The translations under genes were made by a program, and so were the position numbers. Below the pieces are notes generated by a model. The model saw nothing but the letters and a program-made list of their open reading frames with translations. It searched no databases and was not told where the DNA came from. 64,000 nucleotides of DNA from Lentimicrobiaceae bacterium (GTDB taxonomy: Bacteria; Bacteroidota; Bacteroidia; Bacteroidales; UBA4417). Below, piece after piece: positions 2 to 48,884 of the stretch (the first letter of the stretch is position 1; every line of letters starts with the position of its first letter). The DNA lies in NCBI GenBank assembly GCA_041753535.1, contig JBGSUB010000080.1, positions 92,208 to 156,207 on the forward strand, written 5' to 3'.

Positions 2-2083
2 CGCGACCTTTCGGGAATGGCCGAATTGCATTTCTTCGATGCGCTAACTTTGAAACCGGTAGATGCTGATCTGGGTTTAACCCAAATGCAAATCCCGTTT
101 ACAGTAAAGAAAGGACAAAGCTCGCCGGTAAGCTGGAAAATAAGTATTCCCGAAGGATTGCAGGCCGTTGTTTACCGCATCACTGCTACTTCTGATGCTT
201 TCAGTGATGGAGAGGAGGCAGCCATTCCGGTCCTGACTAATCGTATGCTGGTAACCGAAAGTTTGCCTTTGCCGGTTAACGGAATGCAGCAAAAGAAATT
301 TAATTTCGAAAAGCTGGTCAACTCCGCGAAAGCGGGTTCAACCATGCGTAATTACAGACTTTCGCTCGAATATACTTCAAATCCTGCCTGGTATGCTGTA
401 CAAGCTCTTCCTTACCTGATGGAGTATCCATACGAATGTGCCGAGCAGATTTTCAGCCGGTATTATGCCAATAGCCTGGCTACTCATATAGCCAACAGCG
501 ATCCGAAAATTAAGCGCGTGTTCGAAAGCTGGAAAAGCATTTCACCCGATGCTCTTAAATCGAACCTCGAAAAGAATGAGGAACTGAAATCAGTTCTTCT
601 GCAGGAAAGTCCCTGGGTGCGCGAAGCCAGCAATGAAAGCGAGCGTAAACAGCGCATTGCCTTGCTTTTCAACCTTAACCGTATGGCTTCGGAACAGACT
701 TCGGCCCTTAAAAAACTACGCGATATGCAGAACCCGAATGGCGGTTGGCCCTGGTTTCGCGGAATGCCCGAAAGCCGCTATATCACACAGCATATCGTAA
801 CCGGTCTTGGTCATCTTTACTATCTGGAAGTGATGAATCCGGTTGAAAACACTGAGATACAGGAAATGCTTAAAAAAGCAATCAGTTTTCTGGATGAAGA
901 GATAAAAATCAATTTCGAAAAACTAAAAAAAGATGATAAGGAATACCTCAAAAATAATCATCTGGGTTATGATGATATTCAGTATTTGTATGCACGGACT
1001 TACTTTATGGCTGATTTCCCAATAGCGAAAGAAAACTATGAAGTGCTTGAATATTATAAATCGCAATCCGCAAAATACTGGAAGTCGCAGAACAATTACA
1101 TGAAAGCGATGATAGCTTTGTACATGAACCGTTTTGGTGACGAAAAAACAGCCTCTCTGGTAATGCGTTCATTGAAAGAAACAGCCTTGCATAACGAGGA
1201 AACGGGAATGTTCTGGCGAAATGAACAACGCGGCTGGAACTGGTACCAGGCACCGGTCGAAACACAAGCTTTGCTTATTGAAGCTTTCGACGAGGTAAGT
1301 GACGATCAGAAATCGGTGGAAGAAATGAAAATATGGCTGCTGAAGCAAAAGCAAACCCAGGACTGGAAAACCACCAAAGCCACAACTGAAGCAGTGTACG
1401 CATTATTACTTCGCGGAACTTCATTACTTGCGTCCGACAAGCAAGTTGAGGTTACATTAGGGACAGAAAAAGTTGATCCTTACAAACAGGACGGTTCGAA
1501 ACCCGAAGCCGGAACAGGATATTTTAAAACCAGCTGGGACGCTGCGTCCATAAAACCTGAAATGGGAAAAGTTACTGTTAACAATCCAAACCCAACAGTT
1601 GCCTGGGGCGCACTGTACTGGCAGTATTTCGAACAACTTGATAAAATTACACCGGCGCAAACGCCGCTCAGTATTTCGAAAAAGCTGTTCCGCGAAGTCA
1701 ACACACCAACTGGTCCGGTTATTGAACCTGTTACTGAAAATACGATTGTTAAAACCGGCGATAAAATTGTTGTCCGCGTTGAACTTCGCTCCGATCGCGA
1801 TATGGAATATATCCATTTGAAGGATATGCGCGCATCAGCTTTTGAACCGGTAAATGTACTTTCAGGATACCGCTACCAGGATGGACTTGGATATTACGAA
1901 TCAACACGGGATGCTTCCACCAACTTCTTCATTTCCTATCTCCCGAAAGGAACCTATGTGTTCGAATACAAATTGGTTGCCACACAAAAAGGCGATTTCT
2001 CGAACGGAATAACTTCGGTGCAATGCATGTATGCGCCTGAGTTTTCAGCACATTCGGAAGGCGTGAGAGTTACGGTGGAATGA
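2..2083 (+). CDS. alpha-2-macroglobulin family protein, C-terminal ~690 aa (5' end lies outside the window)
   Basis: Reading frame is open to the window edge. Thioester-type motif context YPYECAEQ, followed by a long C-terminal region typical of bacterial A2M. Stop at 2081-2083. Confidence 0.85.
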   Translation, partial: RDLSGMAELHFFDALTLKPVDADLGLTQMQIPFTVKKGQSSPVSWKISIPEGLQAVVYRITATSDAFSDGEEAAIPVLTNRMLVTESLPLPVNGMQQKKFNFEKLVNSAKAGSTMRNYRLSLEYTSNPAWYAVQALPYLMEYPYECAEQIFSRYYANSLATHIANSDPKIKRVFESWKSISPDALKSNLEKNEELKSVLLQESPWVREASNESERKQRIALLFNLNRMASEQTSALKKLRDMQNPNGGWPWFRGMPESRYITQHIVTGLGHLYYLEVMNPVENTEIQEMLKKAISFLDEEIKINFEKLKKDDKEYLKNNHLGYDDIQYLYARTYFMADFPIAKENYEVLEYYKSQSAKYWKSQNNYMKAMIALYMNRFGDEKTASLVMRSLKETALHNEETGMFWRNEQRGWNWYQAPVETQALLIEAFDEVSDDQKSVEEMKIWLLKQKQTQDWKTTKATTEAVYALLLRGTSLLASDKQVEVTLGTEKVDPYKQDGSKPEAGTGYFKTSWDAASIKPEMGKVTVNNPNPTVAWGALYWQYFEQLDKITPAQTPLSISKKLFREVNTPTGPVIEPVTENTIVKTGDKIVVRVELRSDRDMEYIHLKDMRASAFEPVNVLSGYRYQDGLGYYESTRDASTNFFISYLPKGTYVFEYKLVATQKGDFSNGITSVQCMYAPEFSAHSEGVRVTVE

Positions 2084-2321
2084 AAGTGTAATTTATAGTC
2101 TGAAAAATCAGGGAATTTTATTTTCTGAAATACACGAACTGTTGCAAGACTGATAGAATCATTAATTCATTTCAAGGATGAATTATTATGGACAATAGGA
2201 AAAGAGATTTTTGGGACTTATACGCGGATTTTAAGTTCTATTCGATAATTATTGTGATAATAGTACTCTTATTACTAACACTTTTCTAAATTACCTATTC
2301 CTTCATTTACATCATTTTATT

Positions 2322-2351
2322 AAACCTGACAGGCTTTTAAAACCTGACAGG
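2322..2351. promoter_or_regulatory. 12-bp direct repeat AAACCTGACAGG x2 (2322-2333 and 2340-2351), about 100 bp upstream of xdhC
   Basis: Exact 12-mer occurs twice, 18 bp apart start to start, in the noncoding gap before the xdh operon. Candidate regulator binding site or member of the word-repeat family. Confidence 0.3.
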
Positions 2352-2452
2352 TATAGCACTTATCAAGACCCAAATCCTTCCCGATAAAATAAACAGTCTC
2401 TTTAATTAAATGGCGGTCATTTTTTTATAATTTAGCAGGATAATATAAGTTC

Positions 2453-3223
2453 ATGCAGGAAATTTTTAAAGATCTGAGATCAGTTATTGAGCAGGGAATT
2501 CCGGCTGTTTTATGTATAGTAACCCAAACTACCGGATCTACTCCACGAAAAGCCGGATCAAAAATGCTTGTATTTCAGGATGGTTCAATTAAGGGTACGA
2601 TTGGCGGTGGAAGTATTGAATACCAGGTTATTCAGGATGCTTTGAAAATTATTTCGTGCGGAATGCCATTTTCGCGTGAATTTCACCTCGAAGATGACCT
2701 GAAAATGCACTGCGGAGGATCCATGGAAGTATATTTCGAGCCTGTTGGATGCCTGCCTAAACTTTACATATTCGGTGGCGGACATATAGGCAAAGCCCTT
2801 GCCGACTACGCATCAGGGCTTGGATTCAGGCCGTTTGTATTTGATCAGCGCGAAGATATTTTCGAAACCTGGAATTTGAGCGGAATTGAAACACGAACCG
2901 GCGATTTTTTACAAATAATTGATTCGCTTGCGTTCGACAACAGCACGTATATTGCCATAGTCACTCATAAGCACGAATTCGATGAGACGGTTTTACTGGC
3001 CTGCCTTCCCCGCGAATTTGCCTACCTTGGAATGATAGGAAGCAAACGAAAAGTAGCTGAAATCAGGAAAAATGCACTGGAAAACAAATCTGTATCCGCA
3101 GACCGGCTAAACATGGTTGATATGCCCATCGGTATTCCATTTGCCGCCGAAACGCCAGCCGAAATTGCCATCAGCATTATTGCCAGAATGATTGACGTGA
3201 AAAACACCCTGAAAAAATCATGA
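2453..3223 (+). CDS. xdhC: XdhC/CoxI-family xanthine dehydrogenase accessory (Mo-cofactor insertion) protein
   Basis: N-terminal XdhC_CoxI-like LCIVTQTTGSTPRKAGSKMLV...GTIGGGSIE, then Rossmann-like LYIFGGGHIGKAL. 4-nt ATGA overlap with the next gene. Confidence 0.85.
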   Translation: MQEIFKDLRSVIEQGIPAVLCIVTQTTGSTPRKAGSKMLVFQDGSIKGTIGGGSIEYQVIQDALKIISCGMPFSREFHLEDDLKMHCGGSMEVYFEPVGCLPKLYIFGGGHIGKALADYASGLGFRPFVFDQREDIFETWNLSGIETRTGDFLQIIDSLAFDNSTYIAIVTHKHEFDETVLLACLPREFAYLGMIGSKRKVAEIRKNALENKSVSADRLNMVDMPIGIPFAAETPAEIAISIIARMIDVKNTLKKS

Positions 3224-4671
3224 GCTCCACGCACAATAAAATTCAGTTTGTATTGAACGACCAGATTGTTACGGTTGATTTTAATACAAATCCTGAATTA
3301 AAGCCAACAACCACGGTGCTTAATTACCTTCGGTCGTTACCTGGTCATAAAGGTGTAAAAGAAGGCTGTGCCGAAGGTGATTGTGGCGCATGTACCGTGG
3401 TTATTGCAGAAATTACCGATGAAAAACTTGCATATAAGACCATCGACAGCTGCCTGGTTTTCCTTCCCATGATTCATGGTAAACAACTGATCACTGTTGA
3501 AAATCTGGCGGATGACAACCAGCTTCATCCTGTTCAGCTGGAAATGGTAAACCACAATGGAAGCCAGTGCGGGTATTGCACTCCGGGCGTTGTAATGTCG
3601 TTGTTCGGGCTTTACAAAAACCATCATAACCCGGGTCGGGAAATGATTGAAGATTCACTCACGGGCAATCTTTGCCGTTGCACTGGTTATCAATCAATAA
3701 TTAAAGCCGCTGAACATGCCTGTTCGTGCGTTGATACGGATAAATTCAAACTTCACGAAACAAAAATTATCGATTTGCTCCGTGAAATAAACCGGGATAA
3801 ATCGACTATCGAAGTATCAACTCCTGATCAGAATTATTACAAGCCACTGACATTGATTGCTGCACTTGCATTGCGGCGGAAATATCCACACGCAACACTC
3901 GTTGCCGGTGCTTCAGATACCGCGCTCAGGCAGACAAAAAAGCACGAGTTATTAAACGAAATTATTGATATTTCAGATATTGCTGAACTGAAGTCTTTTG
4001 TTGAAGATGAAAATAGTTTCAAAATCGGCGCTGGCTTGAATCTTGAACAACTGAAGTCACATTCAGTTGAAAAACTTCCTGCTCTGTATAAAATGCTGCA
4101 GATTTTCGGATCACTTCAAATCCGGAACCTGGCAACCATCGGGGGTAATATTGGTTCTGCATCACCCATCGGCGATATGCTTCCGGTGCTCATGGCTTAC
4201 AAAGCACATATTAAATTACAATCGGAAACTTCCGAAAGAATGGTTTGGATTGAAGAATTTATAAAAGGATACCGTTCCACCGATATCCGATCCGACGAAA
4301 TGATTACTACCGTGCATATTCCAAAACTCCCGGGAGATACTTTTGTGTATTCCTATAAAGTTTCGAAGCGGAAAGACCTTGACATCTCAACCGTTAGCGG
4401 AGGGTTTTCACTGAAACTTGAAAATGGACATGTGAAAGAAATAATACTCGCCTTTGGCGGAATGGCCGATCAGCCGAAGCGTGCTTCCGAAACTGAGCAT
4501 TATCTTCAATGGAAGTCCTGGACGAGAACGAATGTGGAACATGCCATAAAAATACTCGTACATGAGTTTACACCCTTGAGTGATGCCCGCTCAGGTGCTG
4601 AATACCGCAGACTTGTTGCCGGCAATCTTTTACTGAAATTCTATACAGAAACTTCAACTCCCGGGCTATGA
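3220..4671 (+). CDS. xdhA: xanthine dehydrogenase small subunit (two 2Fe-2S domains plus FAD-binding domain)
   Basis: Plant-type 2Fe-2S CAEGDCGACTV. Second cluster CGYCTPG...CRCTGY. FAD-binding/CO-dehydrogenase flavoprotein-like region LVAGASD...ATIGGNIGSASPIGD. ATGA overlaps on both sides. Confidence 0.9.
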   Translation: MSSTHNKIQFVLNDQIVTVDFNTNPELKPTTTVLNYLRSLPGHKGVKEGCAEGDCGACTVVIAEITDEKLAYKTIDSCLVFLPMIHGKQLITVENLADDNQLHPVQLEMVNHNGSQCGYCTPGVVMSLFGLYKNHHNPGREMIEDSLTGNLCRCTGYQSIIKAAEHACSCVDTDKFKLHETKIIDLLREINRDKSTIEVSTPDQNYYKPLTLIAALALRRKYPHATLVAGASDTALRQTKKHELLNEIIDISDIAELKSFVEDENSFKIGAGLNLEQLKSHSVEKLPALYKMLQIFGSLQIRNLATIGGNIGSASPIGDMLPVLMAYKAHIKLQSETSERMVWIEEFIKGYRSTDIRSDEMITTVHIPKLPGDTFVYSYKVSKRKDLDISTVSGGFSLKLENGHVKEIILAFGGMADQPKRASETEHYLQWKSWTRTNVEHAIKILVHEFTPLSDARSGAEYRRLVAGNLLLKFYTETSTPGL

Positions 4672-38950: not shown

Positions 38951-39021
38951 CATTCTCCCTAAATCCTAAATCCTAAATCCTAACTAACCCCTAACCCCCA
39001 ACCCCTAAATACTATATCTTT
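38951..39021 (+). repeat. 71-nt G-free leader built of CCTAA(A/C) words directly upstream of the sigma-factor start
   Basis: No G between 38951 and 39021. (CCTAAAT)3 then CCTAACTAACCCCTAACCCCCAACCCCTAAAT. TAA triplets fall in all three frames. Confidence 0.9.
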
Positions 39022-39658
39022 GTATAAATTCCTCCAAAACGTGGCCCTCCGTTTTTTCCGTAAAGACGATAAAAAAGAACTGCTTTCTTTACCTGATGAG
39101 CAGCTGGTAGCGCGCTATGCCCGGACACACGACAAGGAAATAATTGGTGTACTTTACGAACGTTATACTCACCTGCTGTTTACAGTTTGTTACAAATACC
39201 TGGGCAACGATGCGGATGCCGAGGATACGGTGATGCTGGTATTCGAAAAGCTTTTCGAGTTGCTTAAGAAGTCAGAAATCAATAATTTTAAAAGCTGGGT
39301 TTATACCATTACCAAAAACGAATGCCTGATGCAGCTCAGGCACAAAAAATCCGGCGAACGTGTAAAAGAAGAGAACTTAAAAAAACTGGACTTTGAAATT
39401 ATGGAATCCGCGGAGCCTGATCATCTGTTAAATGGTGGAAATGGCTCAGGAGAACACCGCATACGCTGCCTCGAAACCGCTATAACCGGTCTGAGTTCAG
39501 AGCAAAAACAATGCATTGAATTGTTTTACCTGGACGAAAAATCGTACCGAGAGGTTGAACAGATAACAGGATTTACCTATAACGAAGTTAAAAGCCATAT
39601 TCAAAACGGCAAACGCAATCTGAAGCAAATGATGGAAAGGATAGAACGCTATGAGTGA
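39020..39658 (+). CDS. RNA polymerase ECF-type sigma-70 family factor
   Basis: Region 2-like YERYTHLLFTVCYKYL...DAEDTVMLVFEKL. Region 4 HTH CIELFYLDEKSYREVEQITGFTYNEVKSHIQNGKRNL. Start uncertain (TTG at 39020 or GTG at 39041). Confidence 0.85.
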   Translation: MYKFLQNVALRFFRKDDKKELLSLPDEQLVARYARTHDKEIIGVLYERYTHLLFTVCYKYLGNDADAEDTVMLVFEKLFELLKKSEINNFKSWVYTITKNECLMQLRHKKSGERVKEENLKKLDFEIMESAEPDHLLNGGNGSGEHRIRCLETAITGLSSEQKQCIELFYLDEKSYREVEQITGFTYNEVKSHIQNGKRNLKQMMERIERYE

Positions 39659-40901
39659 CACGAATAACAAGTCGTCGGCTCCCTTCACGCCCTCCGGTTG
39701 CCTTTCAGGCGATGCGCTGATGCTGTTCGTTACCGGATCGCTTTCGGATTCCGATCTGAAGCTGGCACAGCAACATATCTCTGAATGTCCTTTATGCGCC
39801 GATGCTGCCGACGGGCTAAAAATGTGGCTTCAGGAGCAAACGCCTGATCAGCAGGACTCGGTAAAAGAGTCAGATAGTTTAAAATCCGAAACGTCCGGAT
39901 TATCGGTGAAACCGCCTCTTGAAAAAGGATATAAAAGTAAATCTCCGGGCACAGCAGCTTATAAATTCCATACTCGGACAGAAGGAATTAATGAGCGTAT
40001 TAAGCAACGGGTGAATTTCCATAAAGAAGTTGACGCAGTTCAACACAAACGCAGGCAAATAAAACCCTATGCGTGGATAGGAGCAGCTGCAACGGTAGTG
40101 CTTTTCCTGAGTATTTTTTATATTCTACGTGTACAAAACCTGTTCGACAAACAGGAATTGGCTCGGAAAAATATCATTCAGGAAAAAGAACAGAACTCAA
40201 TTATTGAAAACTCAGACTCCATCTTAAAATCTTCAAACCTTGCGTTAAAAGAGGAAAACCAATTTAAAGTGAAACGGTCCTCCGAAATACCCAATGCTAT
40301 ACCTGTAATTAGTAATGATGAAATATCCAGTTATCAGAATAACAGTATTATAGAAGATTTATCCTTGGAAGAGATAGCTGAAGCAGAAAAGTTTGATACA
40401 TCTGTAACCGAAAACAACAATTCTCCGACTGAAGTAGCTGGTACGGTGATCACAGCTTATAAAGTTCCTTTGGAGAAAAAGTCAACGGGATATGCCGTTA
40501 TGGAAGAAAAACCTGTACCGGAGATTGATGGGGTTAAGGTTAATAAATCGAAAAGAAGTGAGAATAAGGAAAAGGAATCAGAAGAAGTGATTTTTACTAT
40601 TGTTGAACAAATGCCTGAATTTCCGGGCGGACAGGAAAAAATGCTTGATTTTCTCTCTGAAAATCTCAAATACCCCGATTCAGCAAAAGAAAGCGGAATA
40701 CAGGGAACCGTTTATATTTCTTTCGTGGTACGAAAGGATGGCCGGATTTCGGAGGTTAAAGTTTTAAGAAGCATAGGCGGAGGATGCGACGAAGAGGCTG
40801 TGCGCGTTGTAAAAAAAATGCCCCGATGGAAACCTGCAACCCAAAGAGGGAAAAAAGTGGATGTATTGTTTAATTTGCCGATAGTATTTAAACTTGATTA
40901 G
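39651..40901 (+). CDS. anti-sigma factor (zf-HC2-like) with one TM segment and a C-terminal TonB_C domain
   Basis: 8-nt overlap with the sigma gene. HISECPLCADAADG. TM segment YAWIGAAATVVLFLSIFYIL. C-terminal EQMPEFPGG...GTVYISFVVRKDGRISEVKVLRSIGGGCDEEAVRVV...KPATQRGKKV. Confidence 0.8.
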   Translation: MSDTNNKSSAPFTPSGCLSGDALMLFVTGSLSDSDLKLAQQHISECPLCADAADGLKMWLQEQTPDQQDSVKESDSLKSETSGLSVKPPLEKGYKSKSPGTAAYKFHTRTEGINERIKQRVNFHKEVDAVQHKRRQIKPYAWIGAAATVVLFLSIFYILRVQNLFDKQELARKNIIQEKEQNSIIENSDSILKSSNLALKEENQFKVKRSSEIPNAIPVISNDEISSYQNNSIIEDLSLEEIAEAEKFDTSVTENNNSPTEVAGTVITAYKVPLEKKSTGYAVMEEKPVPEIDGVKVNKSKRSENKEKESEEVIFTIVEQMPEFPGGQEKMLDFLSENLKYPDSAKESGIQGTVYISFVVRKDGRISEVKVLRSIGGGCDEEAVRVVKKMPRWKPATQRGKKVDVLFNLPIVFKLD

Positions 40902-41031: not shown

Positions 41032-44000
41032 ATGAAACCAGCATTTACAGTCTTATGCAGTTTACTTTCAGTTTTACTTACCGCAATTATTGTACCTCAA
41101 AAAGCATATTCCCAGGTAGTTATAAATGAATACTCCTGTTCTAATTTCGACAGTTTTCCTGACGACTTTATGGAGTACGGCGACTGGCTGGAATTGTATA
41201 ACACAGGAAGCAATGCTGCCAACATATCAGGATATTACCTCAGCGATAATCCCGCTGCACCGCAGAAATGGCAAATCCCGGCCGGGGCAGTTATTCCTGC
41301 AAACGGCTTTCTTCGTTTTTGGGCATCGGGCCGCGACCTGGCAAATCCCGAAAATTTTCATACCAGTTTTAAATTTACCCAGACCAAAACGACACCTGAG
41401 TCCATAGTTTTTGCCGACCCATCAGGAATAATTATCGACCAGCAACAGCTCTCCATCACACAGAAAGGACATTCGAATGGACGGAAACCAAATGGCGGTA
41501 ACGAATGGAATGTTTTTACAACGCCAACTCCCGGAGGACCCAACAATACAACTGCCTATTTTCGCTATACCGAAAAACCGGTTATGAGTAGTACAAGTGG
41601 TTTCTATGATAACAGCCTGACAGTAAGTATCTCCACCAACGAACCGAACGCTAAAATACGTTACACTACAAATGGCAACGAACCTAATGCAACATCATCG
41701 CAATACACAGCCCCCATATCGGTAAGCGCGACCAAAGTATTAAAAGCCAGGGTCTTCAGCAACGATGCCACCATTCTTCCTGGTCTTATCGAGTTCAACA
41801 CATATTTTATCAACGAAAATTTTACATTACCGGTAATATCTATTTCTGCCAATGACCTGACCACTCTTTTAAATGGAAACGGGAACATCACTCCATGGGG
41901 ATCAATCGAATATTTTAATGCTGATAAAATCCGAACCACAACGGGTTATGGAGAATTCGACAGGCACGGACAGGATTCATGGGCACATCCTCAGCGAAGC
42001 CTCGATTATAAAATGCGCGACGAATGCGGGTACAATTATGCTTTACTCGAAAAGCTGTTTTCGGATACCGACAGGGATGAATATCAGAAAGTGATACTGC
42101 GTGCCTGTGGTGATGATAACTACCCCGGAATTGACTCAAGTGCCCAGGTTCGTGATGATTTTGTACAAACCGTTTCGGTAAAAGCCGGAATGAGTCTCGA
42201 TGAGCGCAAATCGGCACGGTGTATCATTTTTGCAAACGGTCAGTATTGGGGAGTTTATTCTATCCGCGAAAAACCAAATGACCACGATTACACAAAGTAC
42301 TATTACGACCAGGAAAAATATGATTTGTATTACCTGATGCTTTGGGGTAGTACCTGGGCCGAATATGGCGGCCAGGAAGCTTTTGACGACTGGAATGCAC
42401 TTTATACTTACATTATGACCCATAATATGGCGGTTCAGTCGAACTTTGATTATGTTGAGTCGCAGTACGATCCCACAAGCCTGACCAACTATATGCTGCT
42501 CAACTCATTCGTAGTATGTTCCGACTGGCTCAACTGGAATGTGGGATGGTGGAAAGGAACCAATCCAAACGGCAGCCATAAACGCTGGGGATATATGCTC
42601 TGGGACGAAGATGCAACCTTTAGCCATTATATTAATTATACCGGGATTCCGGCCCAGGATCCCTATGTGGCTCCCTGTTTCCAGGAAGATATTACCGGTT
42701 CGTCCGATCCCGAAGGACATGTGAAAGTGCTGAACAGGTTGTTGCAGAATCCGGGCTTTAAGCAATATTACATCTCGCGGTATGCCGATCTGCTGAATAC
42801 CGCTTTTAAACCTTCGAATATGATCCCGCTTTTCGACAGCCTCGTTGGACTGATTGCTCCCGAAATGCAGAGACATTGTACCCGCTGGGGAGGCAATGTT
42901 TCGCAATGGAACGAAAATGTGCAGAAAATACGCAATTTTGTCACAACAAGGTATAGTGTTGTTTCGGCGGGCATTAACGAATGTTATTCGGTAACTGGAC
43001 CATACCAGCTGGTTGTGAATATGGAGCCCCCTGCAGCCGGACAGGTTCAGGTTAATTCGCTTACGCTGAATAATTTGCCATGGTCAGGTAATTATTATGG
43101 TGGAATGGACACAAAACTTTCGGCAATTGAAACAAACCAGCAATATAAATTCGATCACTGGACTGTGAATAACAATGTTATTTTACCTTTTGATACAGCC
43201 CAGAATATCAGGATTAAATTAACTTCGGCTGACACCGTAACGGCCGTATTTATACCCAGGGTTTTCTCTGATTCATTGGTTATCAACGAAATAAATTACA
43301 ATTCCGCGCCCGATTTTGATCCTGGTGATTGGGTTGAATTGTACAATCCTATGGATCATTCAGTGGATATTTCAGGATGGGTTTTTAAGGATGAAGACGA
43401 TCTACACGCCTATACATTTGCTTCCGGCACACAAATTCCGTCGAAGGGCTATATTGTTATTGCTAATGATATGACGGCATTTCATAATTTATTCCCAATG
43501 GTTACCAATTATGTCGGTTCTATGGGATTTGGATTTGCCGGTGGCGGAGAACTGTTAAGGGTTTTTAATAATTCAGGAACCCTGATAGATACTGTTAATT
43601 ACGATGATGTTGCTCCCTGGCCAACCCGGCCTGACGGTCAAGGTGCGACCTTGGAATTGATTTCGCCTGACCTGGATAATGCCCTTGGCCAGAACTGGAA
43701 AGCCAGCGGAATAACAACGCATGGAACACCGGGTGAAGGAAACAGTATAAATGTTGGGCTCGATACACCTGTTGCCGCCGAAAAACTTACATTAACCATT
43801 TATCCGAATCCTTTCCGTAACACGGCAATGTTGAAAATTAATACGGCCTCCGTGATTAATGACGGTATGTTGGAAATCTACAACCTTGCCGGGCCGAAAG
43901 TTCAGCAGTTTGATCATATTTCATCGAAGCAGGTGGAGCTTAACAGAAGCGGGCTTCAGCCGGGTTGTTATATTCTCCGGTTTACAAATCTTGCCGGAAA

Positions 44001-44034
44001 CCTTACAGGCGTTGGAAAGATGATGGTGGAATGA
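41032..44034 (+). CDS. secreted CotH-family protein with two lamin-tail (LTD) domains, a chitobiase/hexosaminidase-C-like domain and a T9SS C-terminal sorting domain
   Basis: Signal peptide. LTD VVINEYS...GDWLELYNTG...ISGYYLSD and again LVINEINYNS...GDWVELYNPMD...ISGWVFKD. CotH-like core (RSLDYKMRDE...YWGVYSIREKPN). C-terminal LTIYPNPFRNTAMLKI... Confidence 0.8.
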   Translation: MKPAFTVLCSLLSVLLTAIIVPQKAYSQVVINEYSCSNFDSFPDDFMEYGDWLELYNTGSNAANISGYYLSDNPAAPQKWQIPAGAVIPANGFLRFWASGRDLANPENFHTSFKFTQTKTTPESIVFADPSGIIIDQQQLSITQKGHSNGRKPNGGNEWNVFTTPTPGGPNNTTAYFRYTEKPVMSSTSGFYDNSLTVSISTNEPNAKIRYTTNGNEPNATSSQYTAPISVSATKVLKARVFSNDATILPGLIEFNTYFINENFTLPVISISANDLTTLLNGNGNITPWGSIEYFNADKIRTTTGYGEFDRHGQDSWAHPQRSLDYKMRDECGYNYALLEKLFSDTDRDEYQKVILRACGDDNYPGIDSSAQVRDDFVQTVSVKAGMSLDERKSARCIIFANGQYWGVYSIREKPNDHDYTKYYYDQEKYDLYYLMLWGSTWAEYGGQEAFDDWNALYTYIMTHNMAVQSNFDYVESQYDPTSLTNYMLLNSFVVCSDWLNWNVGWWKGTNPNGSHKRWGYMLWDEDATFSHYINYTGIPAQDPYVAPCFQEDITGSSDPEGHVKVLNRLLQNPGFKQYYISRYADLLNTAFKPSNMIPLFDSLVGLIAPEMQRHCTRWGGNVSQWNENVQKIRNFVTTRYSVVSAGINECYSVTGPYQLVVNMEPPAAGQVQVNSLTLNNLPWSGNYYGGMDTKLSAIETNQQYKFDHWTVNNNVILPFDTAQNIRIKLTSADTVTAVFIPRVFSDSLVINEINYNSAPDFDPGDWVELYNPMDHSVDISGWVFKDEDDLHAYTFASGTQIPSKGYIVIANDMTAFHNLFPMVTNYVGSMGFGFAGGGELLRVFNNSGTLIDTVNYDDVAPWPTRPDGQGATLELISPDLDNALGQNWKASGITTHGTPGEGNSINVGLDTPVAAEKLTLTIYPNPFRNTAMLKINTASVINDGMLEIYNLAGPKVQQFDHISSKQVELNRSGLQPGCYILRFTNLAGNLTGVGKMMVE

Positions 44035-44160: not shown

Positions 44161-45111
44161 CTAAAATGTGTTGTTAAGATAAAATCCGATTGTGAAACTA
44201 TTTATCACTTTAGGTTTTGGGTTCACGTTGATATCATATAAAAACTTGGTACGTAATGTTAAGCGGAAGTGTTTCAGTAATTTAAAGTGAAATGCGTTGT
44301 TAATATCAGCTTTGTAATACTTTAGGAATTTGATATCAGACCTATTTACATTAAACTGGCTAAAATTTTCCAGGTATAAGTTTTTTAAAATCTCATGCGA
44401 TGGAACTGTAAAAACGAGGTTAAGACCAAATTCCATTTTGGTTACCTCGCCTTTTTCCAGTCCGTATAATTTTTTCGCTTCCCTGGTTTCGAATATGGCC
44501 TGATTTTTTATACGGGTCTTCCTGCCGTTAACTAAACCAAGTTCAATGGTACAATAATCACCGGCATCATATTTTATGCCTGCAGACAAATTGTTGTATC
44601 CCGGTGACAAATAGGATGTGTATAAAAAGGGGACCATCACGCCAGTACTATCTGCTTTATAGTCCTTATGCTTGAAGTACTGGCTTTTGGAATTTGTAAC
44701 AATATTGAAAGCAAACCTCGATTTGCCAAACCGGTAGGATAAGTTGTTTTTAAAATTATACTGATCTTCAGAAATGGAGGAGATGCTATCTACAAATTTT
44801 TTAAACCCGAATTCAGTGAAATAATAATTGGACATCATAAATTTACCGGCACTTACCTTATTATTTATTGTTAAATTATAGTACAGGTAGAGGCTGTTTT
44901 TTTCGTTGGAGGTTTGCCCGTTAATAAACTGTATGCTGGCAAACGTTGTATAAAAATCGATAATAGTTACTGCTTTAATTTGTCTTTCGGGAATAACCAA
45001 AGCACGGTTTGTACTGTCCTGCCCGGATACATTACTAAAAGAATGTGACAGGATCAGATAAAGAAGCAAATGTTTGGGTTTAGCTGAAATGAACATATTA
45101 AGGTTCAACAC
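44161..45111 (-). CDS. hypothetical protein, putative outer-membrane beta-barrel
   Basis: 316-aa ORF with N-terminal hydrophobic segment, alternating Tyr/Phe-rich strands and C-terminal ...YLNNTF (terminal Phe). No family recognised with confidence. Confidence 0.6.
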   Translation of the reverse strand: MLNLNMFISAKPKHLLLYLILSHSFSNVSGQDSTNRALVIPERQIKAVTIIDFYTTFASIQFINGQTSNEKNSLYLYYNLTINNKVSAGKFMMSNYYFTEFGFKKFVDSISSISEDQYNFKNNLSYRFGKSRFAFNIVTNSKSQYFKHKDYKADSTGVMVPFLYTSYLSPGYNNLSAGIKYDAGDYCTIELGLVNGRKTRIKNQAIFETREAKKLYGLEKGEVTKMEFGLNLVFTVPSHEILKNLYLENFSQFNVNRSDIKFLKYYKADINNAFHFKLLKHFRLTLRTKFLYDINVNPKPKVINSFTIGFYLNNTF

Positions 45112-45292
45112 TTTCCTGTAAATTCAATTAGGCTGGATATGGCTTACATTATTTTTTTACCAAATCCCGAACTTTTGGATTTTAGAATATAATATTCACT
45201 CCTTGAAAGAGCAATAATTCTTATATGGTAACGGCTTGGTTTGATGAAGAAACGGGAGGCTTTTCAGGAATTAAGAAAGCCTCCCTAAAATT

Positions 45293-45712
45293 TTATAAAG
45301 GGATTTCAATGCAATATTTACCATTCAGAAAGGTCAGGTTATATTCCCCTTTTTTAATTACCAGAGGTTTCGATGCTTGAACGGCAGTATTAATCTCAGT
45401 CGAAAAGGCAAAGTCCTCCGTAATCAGAACTTCGCTTTTATTAGTAAAGAAAACCAATTTATCGGGCTGAACATTTTGCAAATCCGTTTTATTAATGCTG
45501 AGTATCAGGCTTCCCCTTTCTTCATCAAAATCTAATGTCCCATTCACGGAGCCATCGTTATAGGATGTTGTTTTTTGTGCTGAACAAACACCAAAACCTG
45601 CACAATTCTGGCTCTTTTTCCCAATAGTAAGGGTTGTGGTTATTACAATCCCCGCAAAGGTTGATAATCCTAGCGTCAGTACAATTATTAATATATAGAA
45701 CTTTTTCATCAC
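45293..45712 (-). CDS. hypothetical small secreted protein (139 aa)
   Basis: MMKKFYILIIVLTLGLSTFA signal-like N-terminus. CAGFGVC motif. Preceded by the conserved upstream module, copy A. Confidence 0.65.
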   Translation of the reverse strand: MMKKFYILIIVLTLGLSTFAGIVITTTLTIGKKSQNCAGFGVCSAQKTTSYNDGSVNGTLDFDEERGSLILSINKTDLQNVQPDKLVFFTNKSEVLITEDFAFSTEINTAVQASKPLVIKKGEYNLTFLNGKYCIEIPL

Positions 45713-45882
45713 TTATAGCAATTAGTGATTGTCCTTACTTTTTACATCTCAAGGAATCAGGATGGGTTTCCATTTTCGCAGTCAACCAGGCACATGGAAC
45801 TCCAATAGCTAACCAGCGCGGATACGCTTCACTTTTTATGAAAAAATTTCCGGTTTAATTTATCGATTCAGCCTGCTGATGT

Positions 45883-45959
45883 TTTTGGTTCGTACTTAGT
45901 TAATTCGCGTTGACAATACACCTCAGGGGGAGGCTTTTTTATTTAGGGTGGCTAACCCC
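45883..45959. repeat. conserved ~80-bp element, copy A (includes a plus-strand terminator-like hairpin and GGGTGGCTAACCCC)
   Basis: TTTTGGTTCGTACTTAGTTAATTCGCGTTGACAATACACCTCAGGGGGAGGCTTTTTT...GGGTGGCTAACCCC. About 90 percent identical by eye to 48254-48333. Confidence 0.9.
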
Positions 45960-45996
45960 ATAATTAAAATAAGTAAACTGACCTCATTAAATCAGT

Positions 45997-47247
45997 TTAC
46001 TCTATAACAGTTTTAATTTTTTCAATCAATTGGGTTGTTCCACTATAATCTTCATCTTCAGCTTTGGCCAAAGAAATAGCCTTTTCTGCTGTTTCGATTG
46101 CCTGTTTGTATTTCCCTTCTTTAAATAAAAGCCATGCATATGTATCATTATAAGCATAATTGTTATTAATTGCTATTGCCTGTTCAATCCACTTTTCGGC
46201 GTCATTAAGTTTTTGTTTATCGGTTATGTTTTGCACAAAAGTCCAGGCCATGCCATTCAATGCTTCGGGATTATTGCTGTTCTCATCTTCAAATTTTTGG
46301 CTCAATTCATTATATTTTTTTTCATCGCCAATTATACTATGATAGATTATATTATTAGCCAGATGGTCATTTTTTGTGTAGAATAAGATGCTTTTATAAA
46401 CCCCGTTTACATCATTCACACGGTAATAATTTGTCGAAATATAGTCGGAGAGTATATTCAAGCACTCTTGCATTTTGTTGAAATCCTTTTCTTTAATGGC
46501 ATACTGAAAATGTTGTGTTGCAATCCAAACAATTCGGCCATCAACCTGGGTAGTATCGTAATATTGATAGAATAACTCTGGCTGAGTTTTCAGTAATTCA
46601 AAGGCTGGTGATGAAATATTAAAGTTGGCTTTCGTATTTGTAATAGCATAGGTATAAATAAATTGAATATTATCCTTTGACCTTAAATCCTCTGGTTTTT
46701 GAGTAGCTAAATATTCATTAACTGTTATTGAGTCAATTTCATTTGCTCCATATAGCAGATAACAATAATCATACAAAAAATCAGCTGAGCGATTACCTTG
46801 CTTATATATTTCCCGCATCCCGGCGAGTGAAGTGTTGCGGTTGATAGATATGTTGCAGAAATGTAAAAATTCATCAACAGATAAAAAACCCACATTTTTC
46901 CCAATTACGACACCAATTGTATCACAAATAATAATTGTAGGATAAGATAGGGGTTTATAAATTTTACTTATTTCAATCCCTTCACCTTTTCTTGCATTTA
47001 TATTGCAACAAATGAAGTTCTCACTAAGATATTCAGCAACAACCGTATCCCCAAAAACCTTTTTCTCCATTTGACGACAGGCACCGCAGTTGTCAATATG
47101 AAAGTAAAGAAATGTAGGTTTGTTTTCAGCCTTTGCTTGTTTCAGCACCTGTTCAAATTTAATGTTGCTGTTTATCAATATATTACATTGAGCAAATGAA
47201 TTAGTCGTTACACTCAAAATTAGTGCTGTAAGGAAAATATATCTCAT
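45997..47247 (-). CDS. thioredoxin-fold (CxxC) protein with TPR-like C-terminal half
   Basis: Signal peptide. KPTFLYFHIDNCGACRQMEKKVF thioredoxin-like motif. C-terminal helical repeats (AEKWIEQAIAINNNYAYNDTYAWLLFKEGKYKQAIE). Confidence 0.75.
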   Translation of the reverse strand: MRYIFLTALILSVTTNSFAQCNILINSNIKFEQVLKQAKAENKPTFLYFHIDNCGACRQMEKKVFGDTVVAEYLSENFICCNINARKGEGIEISKIYKPLSYPTIIICDTIGVVIGKNVGFLSVDEFLHFCNISINRNTSLAGMREIYKQGNRSADFLYDYCYLLYGANEIDSITVNEYLATQKPEDLRSKDNIQFIYTYAITNTKANFNISSPAFELLKTQPELFYQYYDTTQVDGRIVWIATQHFQYAIKEKDFNKMQECLNILSDYISTNYYRVNDVNGVYKSILFYTKNDHLANNIIYHSIIGDEKKYNELSQKFEDENSNNPEALNGMAWTFVQNITDKQKLNDAEKWIEQAIAINNNYAYNDTYAWLLFKEGKYKQAIETAEKAISLAKAEDEDYSGTTQLIEKIKTVIE

Positions 47248-47430
47248 TTTTTCAGTATTTTCAGTATTTCGGTTCCCGCAGTGTAAATTTTTACAAGTCC
47301 TGACGTGTTTTTACGGTGTAAAAGATTCTGAGTTATCTTTTTAAGGTTTATTTTTTTATTAGTTAAGGAAAACTCTACAATAATTTTTATTAAACCCTGA
47401 GTTTTATTTCACTGGATACTGTAGAGTATC

Positions 47431-47478
47431 ACTTAATCTTTGGTGGATATATATTTACAATTCCACCAAAGATTAAGT
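47431..47478. terminator. perfect 17-bp hairpin (ACTTAATCTTTGGTGGA / TCCACCAAAGATTAAGT), 14-nt loop
   Basis: Read directly. Lies 41 nt downstream of the stop of the 47519-47989 gene. No U-tract on either strand. Confidence 0.45.
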
Positions 47479-47518
47479 TAGAAAAAACAAATATTTATCT
47501 CAAAATAGATTTTAACTA

Positions 47519-47989
47519 TCAGAAATAGCTATTTTCCCCAATAGTACCTGTTTCGGTTTTATTACATTCACCTTGACCTTCAGGGATGCAAGGAGTACAT
47601 TTATAACCCGCTGATCCATATTCAACAGAACACCCTTCAGTGCATCCCCCACTTCCTGTGCAAGTTACTACTATACTTGTTCCTGAGGCAAAAAGAAGTG
47701 ATCCATTGTTGCTCAAAGATATTCCATAGGTCGATACAAATCCTGATCTAATTGTTCTATCTTTAGAAACTATTAAATATTTTCCGTTCGATTCCTTTAT
47801 TAAAAATGAGTATAAATTAGCATCATTTACTCCAGTCGTCTTTAGAAAATTTTCCCATTTAGATTTGAGAATATTTACATCAATGGTCATTTGAGCAACA
47901 CCATTTTCAATTTTTCCTATTTGTGTTTGAGCACTAACATAGCAACTCATTAAGAAAACTACAATAGTACTTAATAAGATTTTTTTCAT
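47519..47989 (-). CDS. hypothetical secreted protein with Cys-rich C-terminus (156 aa)
   Basis: Signal peptide MKKILLSTIVVFLMSCYVSA. C-terminal VVTCTGSGGCTEGCSVEYGSAGYKCTPCIPEGQGEC. Preceded by the conserved upstream module, copy B. Confidence 0.65.
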   Translation of the reverse strand: MKKILLSTIVVFLMSCYVSAQTQIGKIENGVAQMTIDVNILKSKWENFLKTTGVNDANLYSFLIKESNGKYLIVSKDRTIRSGFVSTYGISLSNNGSLLFASGTSIVVTCTGSGGCTEGCSVEYGSAGYKCTPCIPEGQGECNKTETGTIGENSYF

Positions 47990-48253
47990 TTTTTAGGGTT
48001 TTTATTTCCTCACGACTTAGTTACATCTTCTGAGGTACAGATGCTTTTCCACTCTCGCAGTCAATAAACTTGCAGCCAAATGGCAGCCATAACCGGCGCC
48101 GGTTCATTTGCAGCCTGGGGCTGCTACAAAGCACATTAAAACCGGTAATGATGTGCAGTGCTGGCCTTTTGATATCTAGGAATATCGGTAAAAACTGCTG
48201 AGCAGGTCAGTCATCTGAGCAATTTTGTTGTATCTTTGCAGAGCCTTTCTCGG

Positions 48254-48333
48254 TTTTGGTTCGTACTTAGTTAATTCGCGTTGACAATAAACCTCCGGGG
48301 GAGGCTTTTTTTATGCTCGGGGTGGCTAACCCC
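48254..48333. repeat. conserved ~80-bp element, copy B
   Basis: TTTTGGTTCGTACTTAGTTAATTCGCGTTGACAATAAACCTCCGGGGGAGGCTTTTTTT...GGGGTGGCTAACCCC. CCTCC-GGG-GGAGG stem followed by T7 on the plus strand. Confidence 0.9.
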
Positions 48334-48884
48334 TGGTTATAAACAAGTATACTAAAGTTTACTTTTCGGGCAGAAAATCCAATATTCTGTTCCGGTTTCA
48401 GTTCAATATTTCTTCTTAAATTATTTGGCTTAGGGGATTAATTATTTTTTGGGTTGAAACAAGTTTAAAAGGTATATTAATCGTTGATGATAAATTATTC
48501 TGAATTTTTACGCTACTAATAGTATATGTTTTGCGAGACAAATATAGTGTATGAGAATAGAAAAAGCAATAGGGGGGGGGTAAAAAAATACAAATAATTT
48601 TTATCTTGTAAAACTATAAACAACTGAAATACAGTAGTTAAAATACAATACAAAAACCAAGCATACAAATTAAGTGTGCTCAAGATAAAATATTTCAATA
48701 CTAAAAGATATTAAATCAATACCTTACATCTCTGTTCCTGATTTTCGTTTTTGTAAATATGCCTTTAACCCTTTATCCAAAAAAACGAAAAAGGTGATAC
48801 GGATATATGAAATTTAGAAGCATTCTAAATTAATTTTGCTGTTAAGTCAAAAGGTATCGGTTCGTGCACAAATCCATCCGCGAA

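Follow-up and report, generated by a model that had tools for sequence, protein, structure and literature searches.

The DNA examined was a 64,000-nt stretch (hereafter, the window) from a Lentimicrobiaceae bacterium, i.e. positions 92,208 to 156,207 of contig JBGSUB010000080.1 (assembly GCA_041753535.1), and the subject of this report is a composite non-coding module that occurs in it twice. Two minus-strand genes, here termed gene A (45293-45712) and gene B (47519-47989), have the same module upstream; the respective modules are called copy A and copy B. Both proteins have signal-peptide-like N-termini and fall into different small families without Pfam matches, in agreement with a previous inspection of the letters (the “sequence-only reading”), which had judged the two secreted-protein genes to be unrelated. 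That inspection had also divided the module into a gene-proximal 44-nt box, a variable core, and a distal element of ca. 80 bp, and all three were found in both copies where it had placed them. The 32-nt core GGTTCGTACTTAGTTAATTCGCGTTGACAATA had two exact occurrences in the window (45887-45918 and 48258-48289), with none expected from shuffles; the gene-proximal box TTTCCAYTYTCGCAGTCAA also had two (45767-45785 and 48046-48064; 0.11 expected). No Rfam 15 covariance model matched at its gathering threshold over the whole window, and a search at E ≤ 10 over 45600-48500 returned chance matches only, all outside the module. The opinion that this is not a described element therefore stands as far as Rfam 15 shows.

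Exact-word scans and protein-anchored look-ups located the module in more than 25 loci from ca. 15 distinct Bacteroidales/Lentimicrobiaceae lineages (these loci bear numbers prefixed with L). The words were 18- to 21-mers, and the loci recovered were in metagenome-assembled genomes (MAGs) and metagenome contigs. An 18-mer scan of one genome per species gave 16 matches, five of which were true homologues, all from Bacteroidales or Lentimicrobiaceae MAGs; a 21-mer scan of metagenomes contributed 18 further homologues. Chance matches were discarded upon inspection of their flanks (L001-L003, L005, L007, L009, L011-L013, L015, L016, L020, and L025). Every true homologue featured the whole composite of box, core, and distal element, ending ca. 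30 nt from the start codon of the gene on the opposite strand. The protein-anchored loci, which are free of exact-word bias, carry the module too, including divergent copies in L042, and two of them (L041 and L043) have a second copy within the gene cluster.

The copies were sorted into forms. The long form resembles copy B, and the short form, to which copy A belongs, lacks ca. 90 nt of stem-loops (H3-H7) and retains simpler hairpins like H1 and H2. A degenerate form consists of the gene-proximal box and part of the distal block only, without the helix P1, the terminator, and the -7 box that are described below. Degenerate modules were located at L008:3950-4330(-), L022:3180-3560(-), and L021:1080-1460(+), each before another gene of the family-2 type; they retain TCCACTTTCGCAG and GGTTTATACTTGGWTAATTCGCGTTGG, lack the second hairpin (hp2, see below), and have a different hairpin in place of the pseudoknot. 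In L028, two module copies (1960-2290 and 1-199) share 130 identical bases; one stops after GGTTCGTACTTAG and continues into unrelated sequence, and the other lies at the contig end. The broken copy reflects either a real recombination or a chimeric assembly.

The spacing of the window copies (2.4 kb) and the presence of two copies per locus in L010, L041, L042, and L043 could be taken to mean that the module is a recent segmental-duplication repeat or a mobile element resembling a miniature inverted-repeat transposable element. We consider this origin extremely improbable. Copies within a genome are less alike than orthologues from elsewhere: copy B is more similar to its L014 orthologue than to its partner in the window, which marks the pair in the window as old paralogues. 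Their flanks and downstream genes differ, their positions are syntenic between genomes, there are neither terminal inverted repeats nor target duplications, and only two copies exist in the 64 kb. With more than 25 loci at hand, a local duplication that produced these two copies and no others, the case that the sequence-only reading had held against itself, does not describe the module. An invertible promoter of the Bacteroidales type was also considered and rejected; the flanking inverted match amounts to 5 nt (GTCAA/TTGAC), and the ca. 25 copies are all in one orientation.

On the minus strand, the 44-nt box was resolved into the invariant UUGACUGCGARAGUGGAAA and a following hairpin, CAUCU...AGAUG. 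The hairpin loop pairs with a G-rich stretch 8-10 nt downstream, and the H-type pseudoknot so formed stops 20-30 nt short of the AUG. Each of 19 variants uses a different complementary pair, e.g. CCUCA/UGAGG (copy B), UCCUU/AAGGA (copy A), CCCCAA/UUGGGG, CUCCUUA/UAAGGAG, AUCCUG/CAGGAU, and GCCUCAC/GUGGGGC. Because MAFFT loses register in the variable loop, pairs were not counted by column; instead, duplex energies of cognate and non-cognate partners were compared. The means over the 19 variants were -8.97 and -6.19 kcal/mol, respectively, and the cognate mean was reached in 0 of 20,000 permutations. Judged by wobble pairs, the gene strand was the better one in 13 cases and the other strand in four.

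The hairpins that had been noticed by eye in the long core are real, and H1, H3, H4, H5, and H6 covary; the sequence-only reading had given them on the plus strand, but they fold better on the minus strand. Compensatory double changes were present at 18 of the 60 consensus pairs of the gene-strand leader core, and the minus strand was preferred over the plus strand by 9:2 for H4 and by 8:3 for H1. Consensus folding of identical columns with RNAalifold resulted in -77.8 (56 pairs) for the minus strand vs. -59.5 (44 pairs) for the plus strand. When complete modules were folded as single sequences, no signal was obtained (z-scores between +0.45 and -2.4); the structure is visible by comparison only. 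Some open-reading-frame calls translate the box (“IDCESGKAS” or “ARVEKHL”), but a coding role was rejected because the frame relative to the AUG differs between loci and because the compensatory changes are of the RNA type. A conserved, covarying, multi-helix structure on the mRNA strand upstream of a coding sequence is what distinguishes a structured cis-regulatory leader, and the covariation, the G-U wobbles valid on the minus strand only, and the consensus energies support the assignment of the box and core as a putative leader of this kind.

The same results bear on the proposal that the whole module is a single plus-strand small RNA of 220-330 nt. Although the terminator is on the plus strand and conserved ends flank the variable core, such an RNA is hardly credible: the wobbles of the pseudoknot, H0, H1, and H4 are valid on the minus strand only, the pseudoknot and the start codon of the minus-strand gene are separated by a constant distance, no conserved promoter box lies between the start codon and the 44-nt box, and the only plus-strand TAnnTTTG is ca. 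70 nt before the terminator.

The distal element behaves differently. The -7 consensus of the Bacteroidetes sigma factor sigma-ABfr is TAnnTTTG (PMC7366714). Within the module, TATCTTTG of copy B is the sole exact TAnnTTTG when both strands are considered. In 10 of 12 long forms, the motif is aligned at one and the same column while its two “n” positions vary, and the divergent L042a has TAACTTTG as its -7 box. After an interval of three bases, i.e. at the fourth base after the box, begins the sequence AGCCUYUCYCGG, which forms the 12-bp helix P1 with CCGGGGGAGGYU; the G-U pairs of this helix would be C-A mismatches on the other strand. Double changes preserve P1 in L042a (GCCUCACUGUGA/UCACAGGGAGGC, 11 of 12 pairs), in L037 (CUGUUUUGA/UCAAAAAAG), and in copy A, where the terminator-hairpin loop has changed to UCAG and the P1 5' strand has the matching CUGA. 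The mean P1 duplex energy was -13.35 for cognate vs. -10.91 for non-cognate strands (reached by 4 of 20,000 permutations), and the plus strand was the better one in 11 of 13 variants, the minus strand in two. Inside P1 are the hairpins P2a (UUGGU-UCGU-ACYWA) and P2b (GUYAAU-UCGC-GUUGAC), whose base changes keep the pairing. The invariant P2b loop (UUCGCG) and the equally invariant leader box (UGCGAR) are complementary over 5-6 bp, which could allow the small RNA to contact the leader.

The P1 3' strand overlaps the hairpin CCUCC-GGG-GGAGG; a U6-U7 run comes after this hairpin in every variant except L037. A terminator scan found CCTCCGGGGGAGG followed by T7 (48292-48312, plus strand) as the only terminator-like site on that strand in the region; a hairpin with T6-T7 on the plus strand only had been proposed from the letters and was thus borne out. 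The terminator stems vary among variants and are nevertheless kept in all except L037. When single sequences of the distal domain were folded, the plus strand was the more stable in 12 of 12, by ca. 11 kcal/mol, and the consensus energies were -52.7 (plus) vs. -35.5 (minus). Along the alignment columns, 85.5% of cells were paired, compared to 40-62% when the structure was slid. The distal ca. 80 bp is thus probably a plus-strand gene for a small RNA of ca. 70 nt. Of the plus-strand RNA of 220-330 nt that the sequence-only reading had offered, the distal element, with its -7 box, plus-only wobbles, and terminator, survives, and the length does not.

Table 1. Positions of genes and predicted module features in the window (1-based; a point in the strand column marks a feature not assigned to a strand)
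Feature	Position	Strand	Details
Gene A, 139-aa signal-peptide protein	45293-45712	-	Small family (13 clusters), no Pfam match
Copy A, pseudoknot and invariant box	45732-45789	-	Hairpin 45745-45764; invariant box 45765-45789; loop UCCUU (45755-45751) with AAGGA (45736-45732)
Copy A (short form), putative small-RNA unit	45870-45940	+	Would be ca. 71 nt; P1 5' strand from 45870; P2a 45885-45898; P2b 45899-45914; hairpin 45921-45933 (CCTC-AGGGG-GAGG); U6 45935-45940
Copy A, hp2	45946-45958	.	GGG-TGGCTAA-CCC
Gene B, 156-aa signal-peptide protein	47519-47989	-	Cys-rich C-terminus, no Pfam family; AUG 47989-47987
Copy B, H-type pseudoknot	48008-48043	-	Hairpin CAUCU/AGAUG, 48043-48039 with 48028-48024; loop CCUCA (48035-48031) with UGAGG (48012-48008)
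Copy B, invariant box	48044-48065	-	AUUGACUGCGAGAGUGGAAAAG (gene-strand reading); kept in every copy, including divergent L042 and degenerate copies
Copy B, optional multi-hairpin leader core	48066-48230	-	H1 48072-48088; H2 48091-48104; H3 48110-48124; H4 48131-48156 (conserved loop); H6 48161-48210, enclosing H5 48171-48186 and H7 48195-48205
Copy B, -7 box	48231-48238	+	TATCTTTG; exact match to sigma-ABfr TAnnTTTG; predicted start near A48242
Copy B, predicted small RNA	48242-48312	+	Ca. 71 nt; P1 48242-48253 with 48295-48306; P2a 48256-48269; P2b 48270-48285; from RNAalifold consensus, P1 permutation test, and terminator scan
Copy B, near-invariant block	48254-48291	.	TTTTGGTTCGTACTTAGTTAATTCGCGTTGACAATAAA; same in copies A and B
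Copy B, terminator hairpin and U7	48292-48304; 48306-48312	+	Hairpin competes with P1
Copy B, hp2	48319-48333	.	GGGG-TGGCTAA-CCCC
Canonical Bacteroidetes gene-strand promoter	48539-48569	-	-7 box TATATTTG (48546-48539); -33 TTG (48569-48567); ca. 200 nt upstream of hp2

The overlap of P1 with the terminator hairpin raises the prospect that the plus-strand unit is a small, riboswitch-like three-way junction in which a ligand chooses between the two folds, so that read-through would result in antisense transcription extending into the promoter region or the gene that lies upstream. The GGAGG strand common to both folds, the repetition of the hairpin 5' arm in the P1 5' strand of every variant, the ca. 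70-nt three-way architecture around a conserved core, and the location of hp2 beyond the U-run, with a loop that covaries with the 5' end of the RNA, would all accommodate such a switch. We regard it as very improbable, because P1 also ends directly at the U-run and both folds therefore look competent for termination; furthermore, no conserved plus-strand gene lies downstream and Rfam has no match.

Nearly every copy has the hairpin hp2, whose loop, GGCW, is complementary to the WGCC at the predicted 5' end of the small RNA, ca. 75 nt away, and covaries with the first base of that motif (GGCA with UGCC in L006, L035, and L042a). In permutations, this covariation was reached 27 times in 20,000 on the plus strand and 317 times in 20,000 on the minus strand. 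These data suggest a long-range or pseudoknot contact that fits either strand.

Beyond hp2 lies a canonical promoter on the gene strand (Table 1), and TTG-N20-TAnnTTTG was found on that strand at a similar distance beyond hp2 in nine long-form loci. We infer that this far promoter may drive the leader. If the mRNA starts there, the leader would be ca. 550 nt long and the small RNA would be fully antisense to it. No promoter of this kind was found on the gene strand of the short forms, no canonical gene-strand -7 box was found directly upstream of hp2, and no conserved small open reading frame (leader peptide) was found between the far promoter and hp2. A G9 tract (48572-48580; C9 on the gene strand) is located directly upstream of the -33 TTG of the far promoter. 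It has the same relative position in L019 and L024 and is absent from the closest relative, L014. Such a tract could make promoter activity phase-variable by slipped-strand mispairing.

Given the far promoter, the whole module might instead be one long gene-strand leader, riboswitch-like or protein-binding and possibly attenuating at the hairpin, in which case the -7 box and U-run of the plus strand would be fortuitous or would do no more than stop stray antisense transcription. The complete promoter at the nine loci is in keeping with this; so is the hp2 contact, which on the gene strand would enclose the block, and the common form has a gene-strand hairpin followed by UUUAUUGU. The block is also kept in degenerate copies that have no small-RNA features. 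We nonetheless deem a single long leader unlikely. The G-U pairs of P1, P2a, and P2b turn into C-A mismatches on the gene strand, where the distal domain is the weaker by the ca. 11 kcal/mol seen in all 12 sequences; coincidence would hardly keep a TAnnTTTG at a constant distance from P1 while its “nn” varies; and the gene-strand U-rich tail is missing in L042 and in the short forms. Copy A, moreover, has no room for an upstream promoter. A 14-bp terminator-like hairpin with a U-rich tail (45971-46002, minus strand) stands directly upstream of it, beginning at the last coding bases of a thioredoxin-TPR gene (stop codon 45997). Since the short forms have no space for the far promoter and this hairpin intervenes, gene A would need read-through or a promoter within the module.

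The near-invariant block of the distal element (TTTTGGTTCGTACTTAGTTAATTCGCGTTGACAATAAA in Table 1) has a pattern of conservation of its own. It is identical also in L037 and L038, which were fetched by protein and not by DNA pattern, and its core TAATTCGCGTTG survives in the degenerate copies. It could, then, be mainly a DNA element (promoter or operator), perhaps read by a sigma factor of the extracytoplasmic function (ECF) type, for which the product of 39020-39658 would be a candidate; the plus-strand helices would then be by-products, without any functional small RNA. An ECF sigma gene (39020-39658) followed by an anti-sigma-like protein with a C-terminal TonB_C domain (39020-40901 for the pair) is ca. 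5 kb away from copy A. The pair shows synteny with a short-form module, a family-2 gene, and a gene for a 316/336-aa protein both in the window and in L006 (ca. 2000-3830). On the gene strand, the block reads TGTCAAC-N16-CGAACC, resembling ECF promoters of the form AAC-N16-CGT. The need of copy A for a promoter after the terminator-like hairpin would be satisfied, and conservation at the sequence level, including in the protein-fetched loci and degenerate copies, is what a DNA element would exhibit. A DNA element alone is still improbable. The stretch that would be the spacer varies no more than the would-be -35 and -10 elements do, and L008, L022, and the degenerate copies do not retain the “CG” of the -10. 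The P1 strands that flank the block covary to keep their pairing, which is not required of a promoter. There is no sigma gene within 10 kb of the L041 or L043 modules, and the window's sigma gene itself lacks a block-like motif. An autoregulated ECF promoter was likewise rejected, since the sigma gene is preceded by a canonical TATCTTTG promoter and by nothing resembling the block. Tandem CCTAAAT heptamers and related CCCTAA-like repeats (38958-39012) are found just upstream of that promoter.

Comparison of the sequences thus supports the conservation, the structure, and the strand preferences of the module, and the module is real, conserved in Lentimicrobium-like Bacteroidales, and, apparently, undescribed. 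To the reading that it is bipartite, with a putative leader on the gene strand and a putative small RNA gene on the plus strand, we assign a probability of about 0.5. The sequence-only reading had presented a plus-strand small RNA and a structured minus-strand 5' untranslated region as mutually exclusive; the evidence splits the module, such that each describes one half. For the untranslated region, the box and the core stand, and the distal element, which behaves as a plus-strand unit, does not.

In the bipartite cassette, the leader would comprise, in order, an optional multi-hairpin core, the invariant single-stranded box, and the H-type pseudoknot before the AUG, and it may set translation or stability of the secreted-protein mRNA by refolding or by binding a factor or ligand. 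The distal ca. 80 bp, from the sigma-ABfr -7 box onward, would encode a compact, three-helix RNA of ca. 70 nt in which P1 closes the 5' and 3' ends, and the 3' arm of the terminator hairpin could pair either locally or with the 5' end of the small RNA. The small RNA gene would face away from the gene for the protein. With an mRNA start at the far promoter, the small RNA would be fully antisense to the leader; with a start inside the block, two promoters would overlap head to head. Either the transcription of the small RNA or the RNA itself may oppose the downstream gene, by promoter competition or antisense pairing. Because the block is common to all copies of a genome, the copies could be co-regulated. 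A further-reaching and more tentative proposal is a two-strand RNA switch, i.e. a new riboswitch-like or protein-binding leader and a new three-helix small RNA that, within ca. 330 bp, jointly control a secreted-protein regulon; the block would then be constrained on both strands at once and the RNAs would be head to head or antisense.

Several observations count against the bipartite cassette. The degenerate copies keep the block without P1, terminator, or -7 box, so that the block may act on the gene strand, e.g. as a promoter or operator. The majority of the sequences came from exact-word scans, which fix part of the block beforehand. The column-based covariation score of the small RNA was modest (reached by 33 of 500 shuffles); this count is the weaker because indels shift divergent copies out of register. 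Short forms, including copy A, have no good -7 box; no TTG lies ca. 20 nt upstream of the box in the aligned sequences, i.e. near -33 of the plus-strand promoter; and L037 has no plus-strand terminator. The candidate small RNA has little single-stranded sequence for a classical seed. If the hp2 contact acts on the gene strand, the leader would span the whole module.

The genes downstream of the module encode small signal-peptide proteins of four or more unrelated families. The proteins have 70-180 residues (nearly all ca. 140-180; the shortest, in L024, has 71) and are without Pfam domains. The L028 homologue of gene B is preceded by the same module. For the gene A protein, an AlphaFold model had a pLDDT of 68, and no fold in the PDB matched it at E ≤ 0.001. 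A type I toxin-antitoxin system, comprising a hydrophobic toxin of <60 aa and an antisense RNA, was rejected: the proteins are longer, they have cleavable signal peptides, and their folds are predicted to be rich in beta structure. Repeatedly encoded nearby are a thioredoxin-TPR protein and a PDZ/aspartyl-protease-like lipoprotein. A conserved order of long module, small secreted protein, PDZ or thioredoxin-TPR protein, short module, family-2 protein, and a 316-330-aa protein without Pfam domains was observed at L041:10001-13909, L043:10001-13884, L042:2606-6798, and window positions 44161-47989; this order suggests a single functional cluster. The interval from gene B to the thioredoxin-TPR gene contains a near-perfect hairpin of ca. 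19 bp (47431-47479; ACTTAATCTTTGGTGGA...TCCACCAAAGATTAAGT), which gave spurious microRNA matches when Rfam was searched permissively and which probably serves gene B as its terminator. A gene located between the module cluster and the sigma/anti-sigma pair (41032-44034) encodes a 1000-aa protein in which CotH and two lamin-tail domains are combined with a C-terminal sorting domain for type IX secretion.

Among described arrangements, that of the DonS-type RNAs of Bacteroides polysaccharide utilization loci comes closest; these are reported to be 78-128-nt cis-antisense RNAs divergent to susC homologues that they repress (PMC7366714). The module shares with them the phylum, the occurrence of the family before several loci per genome, the divergent or antisense placement of a (here, predicted) small RNA gene opposite to a gene at its 5' region, and, at some loci, an ECF sigma/anti-sigma pair nearby. 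On the features compared, the module is not a member of the DonS family: its genes encode small secreted proteins with thioredoxin-TPR and PDZ neighbors instead of susC/susD in a utilization locus, and its predicted RNA of ca. 70 nt has a near-invariant core, would adopt a conserved three-helix fold, and is coupled to a long pseudoknotted leader. The plus-strand unit has the TAnnTTTG of a sigma-ABfr promoter and the G+C-rich hairpin and U6-U7 of an intrinsic terminator; it differs from the standard versions in that the promoter lacks TTTG at -33 and the 3' arm of the terminator also pairs with the 5' end of the RNA.

Plasmid countertranscripts such as RNAI of pT181 and RNAIII of pIP501 are highly structured antisense RNAs that act on an mRNA leader. 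The likeness is in the compact, stem-rich RNA opposite to a long leader and in the alternative pairings that involve a terminator-like hairpin. Unlike them, the module is chromosomal and precedes secreted-protein genes, it has no evident kissing loop (both hairpin loops are 4 nt), and gene-strand attenuation is not supported in all variants. With riboswitches of the preQ1 and SAM-II classes, whose H-type pseudoknots are near the start codon, and with orphan structured leaders known from comparative genomics, the module has in common invariant unpaired nucleotides beside covarying helices, a pseudoknot by the translation start, an optional peripheral domain, and several copies per genome before different genes; in contrast to preQ1 and SAM-II, it matches nothing in Rfam 15, its pseudoknot ends 20-30 nt before the AUG, and its downstream genes hint at no ligand.

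To our knowledge, Bacteroidetes lack Hfq and rarely use Shine-Dalgarno pairing, and we know of little charting of their RNA-based regulation beyond gut Bacteroides. The module supplies two RNA candidates with good comparative support in Bacteroidales that are abundant in anaerobic digesters, and the genes behind it make up a candidate regulon of small secreted proteins, along with thioredoxin-TPR and PDZ partners. Should the two halves interact, the module would represent an unusually compact form of sense/antisense control that is reused before unrelated genes.

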